Assembly: GCF_000009045.1 (NCBI RefSeq)
Contig: NC_000964.3
Coordinates: 2,160,001-2,192,000, forward strand
DNA: 32,000 nucleotides
Origin: Bacillus subtilis subsp. subtilis str. 168
Lineage (GTDB): Bacteria; Bacillota; Bacilli; Bacillales; Bacillaceae
Direction: 5' to 3'
In this document: positions 1-6,613 of the stretch, one piece after another
How positions within the stretch are numbered: the first letter of the stretch is position 1
How the letters are laid out: the number at the start of each line of letters is the position of its first letter
Position numbers and translations under genes: made by a program
The notes under the pieces: model-generated
Told to the model about the DNA's origin: nothing
Databases searched by the model: none
The model's input: only the letters and a program-made list of their open reading frames with translations

Positions 1-389
1 CGGTAAAAATGAAATCTGAATCCTTTAAAGGCTCCACTGTTGCTTTTTTGTATCCATTCCCTTTAGTTGAAAAGAAGTCATGGGATTTAGTCTTAGTGTT
101 CAAACCATTGATAACAATTGGATTAACATCCTCTTCTTCAAACCAATGATCAAAGCCCAGATTGTTTAAAGCTTTATTTGCGTTGTATCTGATGAATTTC
201 TTTACATCTGGAGCTAATCCAACCTGATCATAGACATCTTCTGTATACTCCAATTCATTTTCGTAAAGTTCCTGCAGTAAGTTTAAAGCCCATGCGTACA
301 GTTCTTTTTGCTTCTGTGGCGTTTGCTTCTTATAAATCTCTTGAGCTAACAATCCTACATATACGCCATGTATCGCTTCGTCTCTAATA
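1..389 (-). CDS. bnrdF: Class Ib ribonucleotide reductase small (beta) subunit NrdF, exon 2; the C-terminal end lies beyond the window edge
   Basis: Minus-strand reading from 389 gives (I)[21 protein letters not shown]...[42 protein letters not shown]. This continues the NrdF sequence that ORF 1191..1778 breaks off at ...SGEIINLII. There is no stop before position 1. Confidence 0.9.
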
Positions 390-1197
390 CCCTTAGTTCA
401 ACCGAGTTCGCTACTTTCGGTTCGTTGCTCTGTCGCAACCGCCTTACGTTACCGTAAGGAGCAGACTATATCATCATCCCTGTAGGATGCCTCCCGTTTC
501 GATTTAAGGGGTTCTCACCCACGCCAATAGCTTGCGCCCTACTCGTTTTGCGGAATTTCGCCGCCTATGCGATAGTCGTTGAACGTTCTATGCGATCCCA
601 TAAAGTCTTCCATCTTCTTTTATGTCGAATTAGACTAACGTAACGAGGATGAAGGCTGTATTTTTCACCAGCTTCAACATTGTTCATTCCAGCAATCAAA
701 TCATAGATTAAATTTGTTGCCTCCATATTAGTGAGCTTTGACATTGAATTACTTTCTCCAGGTTGTCCTGACATTAATCCAATTTTCATTGCATGTAGAG
801 TATTTTCTTTAGGTGTAACTATTTCTAAGTTCCGAACGTGGTTGTTTAGTTTATTTCCATCTATGTGGTTTACAAACATTCCTTTTGGTATATCATAAAT
901 AAAATATTTTGCGACTAACCTATGTACTAAATAGTTCTGTGTTCCTTTTTTCGGATGCGTGTATCCTATCATTTCATAGCCATGTGGAGTAATAAATGTC
1001 TTTCTTGGTTTCTTTAATTTTTTTGATATGATAACTCCCGTTTCCGTTATCCACCAAGGTGCTTCTTCGACTTCTTTCCTTATCATTTTCACCTCCTTTG
1101 GGTTCGCATAGCTTCGCTGCTGATTGTCCTAATAAGGATTTTCCAGCAATTAGAGAGGTTCACATTTGCCGTTGCCGACAAAAGGGACTATTAAATA
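390..1197 (-). mobile_element. Group I self-splicing intron interrupting bnrdF (808 nt by my boundary placement), carrying the yosQ ORF in a peripheral loop
   Basis: Removing 390..1197 joins ...ATC ATT AAC CTG AT|T ATT AGA GAC GAA, which reads EIINLIIRDE, the conserved NrdF metal-ligand motif. The upstream exon ends in U and the intron ends in G, as group I introns do. The intron shares several core sequence blocks with the bnrdE intron. A 7-bp stem (plus-strand TATGCGA 589..595 with TCGCATA 1104..1110) closes the ORF-bearing loop. Confidence 0.85.
565..1086 (-). CDS. yosQ: Intron-encoded HNH-family homing endonuclease
   Basis: The ORF lies entirely inside the bnrdF intron. It has an HNH core (...[11 protein letters not shown]...[24 protein letters not shown]...). 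SD AAAGGAGG sits 5 nt before the ATG at 1086. The ORF-track start at 1092 is a GTG that overlaps the SD. Confidence 0.85.
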
Positions 1198-1778
1198 ATC
1201 AGGTTAATGATCTCTCCACTTTGCATTAACTTTCCTTGTCCATAAAAATAAAGTGGGTAATAAAACCCTGAGTAGAAAAGAAAACTCTCCAGGAACACAG
1301 ATGCAACCATTCCTTTAAATAAAGAAATTTCATCGTTTTTCTTGATTGTTTTATAGACTGAAACAATTGTTCTAGCTTTCTTTTGAAGAAACCTATTGTT
1401 TTTCACCCATTCAAAGACTTCATTGATCTGCTCGGTTGGAGCCAATGTTAGAAAGATGTTGCTGTAAGACTTTGCATGAACAGCATTTTCCATCATGGCC
1501 ATGAAATTTAAAACTGCCTTTCTTTGATGTCCATCTACGTGTTCAGCCACGATCGGCATCCCCGTATTCCCCTGCTCTGTATCAAGAAGCGTAAGTCCGG
1601 CCAGTACCTTCATATAAGTGTCCTGCTCATTTTTTCCGAGGTACTTCCATGTGAGGAGATCGCCGTTTAAAGCAATCTCTTCCGGAAGCCAGAACTGTTT
1701 CACGTTTTGGTTATAGAACATTTGGGTAAAATCGTCTTCATGCTTTGACCAGTTTGCTGCGTCATAAATTTTTGTCAA
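1198..1778 (-). CDS. bnrdF: Class Ib ribonucleotide reductase small subunit NrdF, exon 1
   Basis: TTG start at 1778 with GAAAGGA 9 nt upstream. The N-terminus [35 protein letters not shown]... is typical of NrdF. The reading frame runs into an intron-borne TAA at 1191. Confidence 0.9.
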
Positions 1779-1892
1779 TTAATCATGTCCTTTCAATTGA
1801 AATATTTTTTTCCGAAAAAAATGCAGTGAATTTAAAAGCTGAATTGACAGACTCCTATATTACTGTCAAACATTCGAAAGGAATGAAAGACA

Positions 1893-4884: not shown

Positions 4885-5613
4885 GGCCAAATCAACCCAT
4901 TTGGTCGGCATATCTGAAGGCATTATCTAGAAGTTTCATAACACCTACGACACCTTTAGTCGCATTCTCTACGTCTTTAATCGCTTCACCTTTGGCTCTT
5001 AGTTTGTTTAGATTTAATGCTACTCCTCCACCTAGCTTAGAAAGCTGCATGGAAATATCAATAGCACGTGAAATATCATTCAAACTGTCGCCTACTTCAA
5101 GTAAGAAGCAGCTCACCATTTCACCTCTTCGCTTACGTCCAGCATTAAGGAAAGTAGGTGTTGCTGGCTGATACTCTTGTTTCATCATAGTATGTACTTC
5201 CTCAACAGCCTTCTCGTAATCGCCATCAGCGCAATATAAAGCCACAATTGAGACACGATCCTCATACCTTTCCAGGATCTTTGTTTTATCGTTTGTCTTC
5301 AATGCGTAGTCATTGTAGAACTTAAAGGCACTCATAAAAGAAGGGAATCTGAATTTGTAACTGTAAGCAATCTTATAGATTGATTTAATCTGTTCGAATG
5401 TATATTTGCTTAAGAATTCTTCCTCGTAATAATCATTTTTAATCAGATAGTCCAGCTTCTCTTTCAGATCATGGAAAAAGACTGTGTTTTGATTTATGTA
5501 ATCAACAAAGTAACTATGTACGGCCTCCTTATCCTTTTCAAATTGATACTTCCCATCTTTCTGGATCATGATTTCATTATTGAGCTTGATCCAATTTGGT
5601 ATTGTGTTTGTCA
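4885..5613 (-). CDS. bnrdE: Class Ib ribonucleotide reductase large subunit NrdE, exon 1
   Basis: ...IPNWIKLNNEIMIQKDGKYQFEKDKEAVHSYFVDYINQNTVFFH... is a typical NrdE N-terminus. The likely start is the TTG at 5613, 9 nt after AGGAGG. The ORF-track ATG at 5671 would add a non-conserved extension that overlaps nrdI by 95 nt. Confidence 0.88.
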
Positions 5614-5972
5614 ATAAGTTGTACCTCCTGAATGATTTTCTGTAGATCTTGTTTCGTTCCACTAAGTTCAAACTTTAATAACAATGGTGTGTGGAACTTA
5701 GCTGAAAGCTTGTCTCCAGCTAAACCATAGTTATCACCCCAAACCTTGTTACCACTAACAGCAACTCCTCTAATTTTATTTTTATTCTTATTGATAAAAC
5801 TCAAAGTCCTTTCAGGTACTTCCCCAAAGCCTATCGTATATGTAATATGTATGAATTCTTGATTGATGATCGTATCATCAGTTATTTCAATTGCCTCAAC
5901 GTCAAACTCTTGTTGCAGCGCTTTGACAAACCTTTTTACATTTCCTGTTTTACTCTCATATGTAATGATCAC
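5577..5972 (-). CDS. yosM: NrdI flavodoxin-like protein of the class Ib RNR operon (nrdIB)
   Basis: A 131-aa ORF beginning MIITYESKTGNVKRFV..., in the position directly upstream of nrdE. Its GTG start overlaps the yosL stop (TAGTG). Confidence 0.85.
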   Translation of the reverse strand: MIITYESKTGNVKRFVKALQQEFDVEAIEITDDTIINQEFIHITYTIGFGEVPERTLSFINKNKNKIRGVAVSGNKVWGDNYGLAGDKLSAKFHTPLLLKFELSGTKQDLQKIIQEVQLIDKHNTKLDQAQ

Positions 5973-6325
5973 TAATCGTTATAAGCCCCTGTAATTAATT
6001 TTGTAGTCACTGTTTCAGCTTCATTTTCAGCGTAATTGAATGCTTCTGATATCTCACGATTAATGTCGCCCATTTCCATGTAGCCCTGTGCCATACTTTC
6101 ATATAAGGAACTTTTCTTAACTGGAACGTAATCATCTAGATTCTTTTCTAATTCAACAAATTGATTTCCTTGTTGGTCAGTTGCAATAATCTCTCCTTTT
6201 AATACAGGGAAAGATTGCCCATCAGCTAAATGAATATGAGTGTTCTCAGTGGCTACTGTAAAGTTAATAATGTTCTTCTTTTTTACATATGGTTGAGTTG
6301 GATCAATACGTCTAGCTGCCCCCAT
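5972..6325 (-). CDS. yosL: Unknown protein with a MazE/EndoAI-like C-terminal tail
   Basis: ATG at 6325 lies 6 nt after AAGGAGA, so the ORF-track start at 6382 is unlikely. The product is 117 aa. The C-terminus GYMEMGDINREISEAFNYAENEAETVTTKLITG resembles the antitoxin EndoAI. The gene name is assigned by position in the SPbeta gene order, from memory. Confidence 0.75.
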   Translation of the reverse strand: MGAARRIDPTQPYVKKKNIINFTVATENTHIHLADGQSFPVLKGEIIATDQQGNQFVELEKNLDDYVPVKKSSLYESMAQGYMEMGDINREISEAFNYAENEAETVTTKLITGAYND

Positions 6326-6412: not shown

Positions 6413-6613
6413 TCACTCTTCTTCGATCGTCCATCCGTTTAATCTTGCGTACTTTAATTTTCTTGAATATCTACGCTTCCACTCGTCCCAGTCCTTCTTC
6501 TCTTGACCTGACGTTAGTGAGCCTCTGTACTGATTTTGTCTTCTTTTCTTGTCTAGCTCTAGTATATCGCCAACCCATCTAGGAACTGACGGCCTATAAT
6601 TACTTTGCGACAT
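6413..6613 (-). CDS. yosK: Small basic Trp-rich protein, function unknown
   Basis: 66 codons, with GGAGGA 7 nt before the ATG. It is co-oriented and tightly packed with its neighbours. Confidence 0.7.
   Translation of the reverse strand: MSQSNYRPSVPRWVGDILELDKKRRQNQYRGSLTSGQEKKDWDEWKRRYSRKLKYARLNGWTIEEE

Follow-up and report, generated by a model that had tools for sequence, protein, structure and literature searches.

A MazE-like C-terminal tail in the Bacillus phage SPβ protein YosL and its proposed role in blocking host MazF

YosL of Bacillus phage SPβ is almost certainly a two-part protein, the tail of which is homologous to the host antitoxin MazE and blocks the host toxin MazF, thereby sparing lytic development. 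The role of YosL as a phage MazF-blocking antitoxin is already known from 2023 preprints and from papers of 2023–2024. The first-pass annotation of this DNA had arrived at the same idea, a phage orphan antitoxin tail that keeps host EndoA/MazF inactive, and this idea has been demonstrated experimentally; the rescue of toxicity, the binding to MazF and the mazF-dependent phenotype of a yosL deletion that it proposed for verification are likewise all published (PMC10769878; bioRxiv 10.1101/2023.04.27.537455). It was mistaken only in supposing that the function of YosL had not been described, since the descriptions date from 2023–2024. The MazF-blocking steps of the mechanism proposed below rest on three papers, with which our sequence tests agree, and the present analysis adds only homology statistics, conservation figures and an examination of the N-terminal domain.

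The window (the whole stretch of DNA analysed, 32 kb) is covered over its full length by the SPBc2 annotation, from yoqW to bnrdF, and the 1.6 kb around yosL are 100% identical, on the opposite strand, to Bacillus phage SPβ (SPBc2, NC_001884 / AF020713). The open reading frame, its translation and the SPBc2 annotation agree on a yosL coding sequence at 5972..6325 on the minus strand, corresponding to SPBc2 120122-120475 (NP_046711.1) and encoding 117 amino acids followed by a TAG stop codon. It starts with the ATG at 6325 and stops with the TAG at 5974-5972. A longer, TTG-initiated frame also appears at this locus in the list of open reading frames; however, the annotated ATG is preceded at a distance of 8 nt by the Shine-Dalgarno sequence AAGGAGA, which supports the 117-aa product over the longer frame. 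The protein family phrog_21769 matches YosL over its entire length (residues 1-117, E 4e-61), and this homology across the full sequence places YosL in the YosL family of SPβ-like phages. We found 23 homologues, in the Bacillus subtilis group.

According to the SPBc2 annotation, yosL is located directly upstream of nrdI-nrdE-nrdF in a lytic replication and nucleotide-metabolism operon, an arrangement common to related phages. Its immediate downstream neighbour is nrdI (bnrdI; 5577..5972, minus strand), identified by annotation and by a Pfam match to Flavodoxin_NdrI (E 7.9e-34). The upstream neighbour yosK (6413..6613, minus strand; 66 aa) is not a toxin gene; its product belongs to phrog_35028, of unknown function, and gave only a sub-threshold Pfam match to DUF1642. 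Annotation, Pfam and tblastn thus bear out the earlier statement that yosL is flanked by nrdI and a 66-aa reading frame, with no MazF/PemK-like frame adjacent. The 32-kb annotation table lists no toxin gene, and no MazF-like translation was found in the 32 kb by tblastn (best E 6.8, with a hand-entered MazF query sequence). A toxin hidden within the window was therefore rejected on the basis of the annotation, the Pfam results for the flanking reading frames and tblastn. A scan for promoters and terminators around yosL yielded sites no more numerous than in shuffled sequences.

At 5964-5974 on the minus strand, the TAG stop codon of yosL has one base in common with a possible GTG start codon of nrdI (TAGTG), and translational coupling of nrdI with yosL is possible. 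In the SPBc2 record the start of bnrdI is placed 6 nt further on, at a codon that reads as ATT. Further downstream, both an intein and an intron interrupt the phage nrdE (2108-5671, minus strand), and nrdF carries an intron bearing the HNH endonuclease gene yosQ (1-1800, minus strand); these are known features that are annotated in SPBc2.

The likeness to MazE is confined to the C-terminal end of the protein. Positions 5975-6100 on the minus strand translate to ESMAQGYMEMGDINREISEAFNYAENEAETVTTKLITGAYND, the last 42 residues of the 117-aa YosL, exactly as the first-pass annotation had quoted them. The EndoAI segment that it had given for comparison is also correct and corresponds to residues 56-93 of PDB 4ME7 chain E, DLMRRGYMEMAKINLNISSEAHFAECEAETTVERLVSG. 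Against this segment, YosL residues 76-113, the MazE/EndoAI-like MazF-binding tail (5987..6100, minus strand), which also aligns to AimX (8ANV_C), can be aligned without gaps, with 18 of 38 residues identical (47%), in line with the earlier estimate of roughly half of the positions. Identities include M78 and the blocks GYMEM, IN, IS, AE, EAET, L and G. With the exception of M78 these had been listed before; the EA of the 'IS-EA' block does not hold, as it needs a shift by one residue.

A phmmer search of YosL against 177,635 PDB sequences returned two significant matches, both to the tail: one to EndoAI (4ME7 chain E, residues 56-93; E 2.3e-4) and one, covering YosL 71-112, to AimX of phage φ3T (8ANV chain C, 'Arbitrium putative lysogeny regulator'; E 1.9e-5). 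The YosL-family profile, built from an alignment of 15 homologues with identities down to 52%, all from the Bacillus subtilis group, matched EndoAI 47-93 with an E value of 1.3e-8, the significant alignment to the true MazE C-terminal segment on which the earlier proposal depended. The Smith-Waterman score of the tail against EndoAI was 89, whereas 20,000 composition-preserving shuffles of the EndoAI segment averaged 22.9 (sd 4.1) and peaked at 51, so that none attained 89. Judged by these sequence comparisons, the likeness of the tail to EndoAI is one of real homology and not of composition.

Conservation within the family agrees with the published function described below. The core contact motif M78-x-x-G-Y82-M-E84-M85 (6071..6094, minus strand), defined by conservation and by published contact residues, contains four positions, M78, Y82, E84 and M85, that are invariant in 15/15 aligned homologues down to 52% identity. 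In a divergent YosL clade the tail retains 61-76% identity, compared with 40-46% for the N-terminal domain. The AlphaFold2 monomer model, computed from the family alignment, places one long helix at residues 73-114 with low confidence (pLDDT about 50), as would be expected if this segment folded upon binding to a partner.

The functional evidence comes from published work. Starting from AimX of φ3T, Zamora-Caballero et al. (Nat Microbiol 2024) used BLASTp to find a C-terminal region common to MazE and YosL, and identified AimX M14, Y18, E20 and M21 as contact residues common to MazE and YosL (PMC10769878). The YosL proteins of φ3T and SPβ bound MazF in vitro, as seen for the purified SPβ protein in biolayer interferometry (BLI), and did so more tightly than MazE or AimX; YosL did not bind phi3T_93; a φ3T ΔaimX ΔyosL mutant was severely defective and recovered when mazF was deleted from donor and recipient (PMC10769878). 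[quoted passage not shown] For φ3T, deletion of yosL alone had little or no phenotype (PMC10769878; bioRxiv 10.1101/2023.04.27.537455). In independent work, Kohm et al. (NAR 2023) obtained null mutations of yosL that suppressed the heat-induced lysis of SPβ c2, and found yosL essential for lytic induction; they saw the YosL protein only after induction, observed no toxicity when yosL was expressed under xylose control, and suggested that YosL is instead a regulator (PMC10516654).

Based on these findings and on the homology of the tail, we propose the following multistep mechanism, in which (i) the roughly 40 C-terminal residues of YosL, homologous to the C-terminal helix with which host MazE (EndoAI/YdcD) binds MazF, would probably be disordered in YosL alone; (ii) upon contact with MazF (EndoA/NdoA) the tail would fold into a helix in the dimer-interface groove, as the MazE tail does; (iii) the tail in the groove would block the endoribonuclease activity of MazF; and (iv) the host MazEF system could then no longer halt lytic development. 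The exact binding geometry of YosL and MazF, and the role of the N-terminal domain, we infer. YosL is the sole MazF blocker of SPβ, because SPβ is without the AimX peptide; that SPβ encodes YosL only had already been stated by Guler et al. (bioRxiv 10.1101/2023.04.27.537455). Consistent with this, tblastn with the AimX helix detected two loci in φ3T (KY030782; aimX and yosL) and one in SPBc2 (NC_001884; yosL). A single MazE/AimX-tail locus in SPβ versus two in φ3T fits the observation that yosL is essential for SPβ lysis and redundant in φ3T.

The N-terminal domain (residues 1-70; 6116..6325, minus strand) is predicted by AlphaFold2 to be a small six-stranded β-domain unrelated to the ribbon-helix-helix domain of MazE. 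The strands lie at residues 12-15, 18-24, 29-32, 38-41, 46-49 and 55-58 (pLDDT 81-89), and 19 positions of the domain are invariant among the aligned homologues. EndoAI residues 1-46, which form the ribbon-helix-helix domain, were never entered by the YosL profile alignment. This agrees, as do the six strands, with the earlier remark that the N-terminal ~75 residues do not resemble that domain. Pfam and NCBIfam scans of YosL returned sub-threshold noise (PBP-Tp47_a, NleE) or nothing, and no ribbon-helix-helix match.

Foldseek searches with the YosL model gave nothing at E <= 0.001 in the PDB or in BFVD. The best PDB match was the C-terminal Tudor domain of UvrD (6YHZ, E 0.27), with Mfd also among the matches, which indicates a weak Tudor- or SH3-like resemblance; with this E value, the UvrD Tudor domain was not accepted as a fold assignment. 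In BFVD the matches, to phage proteins without characterisation and to 'PGDYG' proteins, were good locally but statistically weak; those to the 'PGDYG' proteins (rmsd 2.0 Å over 52 columns, E 0.1-0.25) serve as no more than a lead. Searched exhaustively with HMMER, the N-terminal domain recovered YosL relatives, the variant P0028 and the repeat proteins P0025-P0027, and nothing else. The repeat proteins were rejected as artefacts, being many-stretch matches on low-complexity tandem repeats. P0028 is a metagenomic protein of 107 aa (L004 617-940, Logan SRR29980909) that matches residues 2-62 with 48% identity (E 3.2e-4); its tail, judged by eye, appears unrelated to MazE, the protein gave a sub-threshold match to PF14083 PGDYG (E 0.055), and the 1.2-kb contig that encodes it offers no useful context. 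The occurrence of this domain with another tail hints that it can combine with other tails as a modular carrier. It is conceivable, but we think it quite unlikely, that YosL is thus one of a larger set of anti-toxin or anti-defence proteins that exchange their tails, and that the domain may itself act on a second target in the host. Such a target, if it exists, would account for the MazF-independent toxicity of overexpressed full-length YosL, which has been traced to the N-terminal part (bioRxiv 10.1101/2023.04.27.537455).

This toxicity is also a reason to ask whether the main task of YosL is carried out by the β-domain on a second host or phage target, with the blocking of MazF as an accessory function. 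Overexpression of full-length YosL is toxic even without MazF, Y82A leaves the toxicity intact, and removal of the N-terminal part ends it (bioRxiv 10.1101/2023.04.27.537455), which argues that the blocking of MazF is not the only activity of YosL. The domain is moreover well folded in the model, has its own set of invariant positions and, in P0028, is paired with what by eye is an unrelated tail. However, the defects of SPβ ΔyosL and φ3T ΔaimX ΔyosL are relieved by deletion of mazF or mazEF (PMC10769878; bioRxiv 10.1101/2023.04.27.537455), the tail is better conserved than the N-terminal domain, the C-terminal part alone neutralises MazF, and the domain has neither a target nor a significant fold match in the PDB and BFVD. 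We therefore consider it unlikely that MazF blocking is the accessory function.

[quoted passage not shown] We find this very improbable. The predicted domain has no counterpart in the Pfam and NCBIfam results, and AlphaFold2 yields six β-strands followed by one long helix instead of a β-α-α arrangement. The homology to EndoAI is limited to its residues 47-93, short of the ribbon-helix-helix region, and Kohm et al. themselves mention the MazF-antitoxin explanation as the newer proposal (PMC10516654). We reject the Arc-type description on the basis of the profile alignment and the AlphaFold2 model; the label probably arose because the tail is homologous to MazE. As to the tail itself, its shortness (38 residues), its richness in E, A and N and its escape from every Pfam model could suggest that two acidic helical segments match here by chance or composition. 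Yet the E values from both single sequence and profile, the shuffles and the experimentally shown binding of MazF (PMC10769878; bioRxiv 10.1101/2023.04.27.537455) leave practically no room for coincidence. Of the explanations considered, a MazE-homologous tail that blocks host MazF is the one we retain.

Phage antitoxins that imitate the toxin-binding tail of the host's own antitoxin reveal how toxin-antitoxin defence is disarmed by phages, and in φ3T such antitoxins even wire this defence into the lysis-lysogeny decision. With the function of YosL established, the finding of the tail raises no new question. [quoted passage not shown]

Proteins with tails resembling those of MazE and AimX are also encoded by large phages of Bacillus, from the B. 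cereus/anthracis group as well as the B. subtilis group, among them vB_BanS-Thrax3, PBC2, Kirov, FADO, PJN02 and Nate. The Thrax3 protein UUV46563.1 (134 aa, L002 1758-2162), annotated as 'antitoxin', is encoded in a replication module, with a primase on one side and a RecJ-like exonuclease on the other; no toxin gene is adjacent, and outside the tail it has no BLASTP similarity to YosL.

The protein described here is the same as the published YosL of φ3T/SPβ, without difference (PMC10769878; bioRxiv 10.1101/2023.04.27.537455). Its likeness to B. subtilis MazE/EndoAI/YdcD (4ME7_E) lies in the homologous C-terminal MazF-binding helix (47% over 38 residues), in the M, Y, E and M contacts and in the common target MazF. 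In contrast to MazE, YosL lacks the ribbon-helix-helix domain for DNA binding and dimerisation and has no cognate MazF/PemK toxin gene in its operon; it is encoded by a phage, expressed only in the lytic cycle and reported to bind MazF more tightly. AimX of φ3T (phi3T_91, 8ANV_C) is the closer parallel, as a phage-encoded mimic of the MazE tail that blocks MazF and is redundant with YosL in φ3T; YosL M78, Y82, E84 and M85 are equivalent to AimX M14, Y18, E20 and M21. AimX differs in being a 51-aa peptide without an N-terminal domain and in binding phi3T_93. It is under arbitrium control (AimR antitermination); yosL is located far from the aim locus, which lies outside the window. T4 Dmd, a phage antitoxin against host RnlA and LsoA, acts on another toxin family and is not derived from the tail of a cognate antitoxin. 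It is an analogue of YosL in logic only, in that an orphan antitoxin of a phage neutralises a toxin RNase of the host and lets lytic growth proceed. YosL is thus MazE-like toward MazF without being a MazE-family antitoxin in every respect, and is best classed among the phage MazE-tail mimics, beside AimX.
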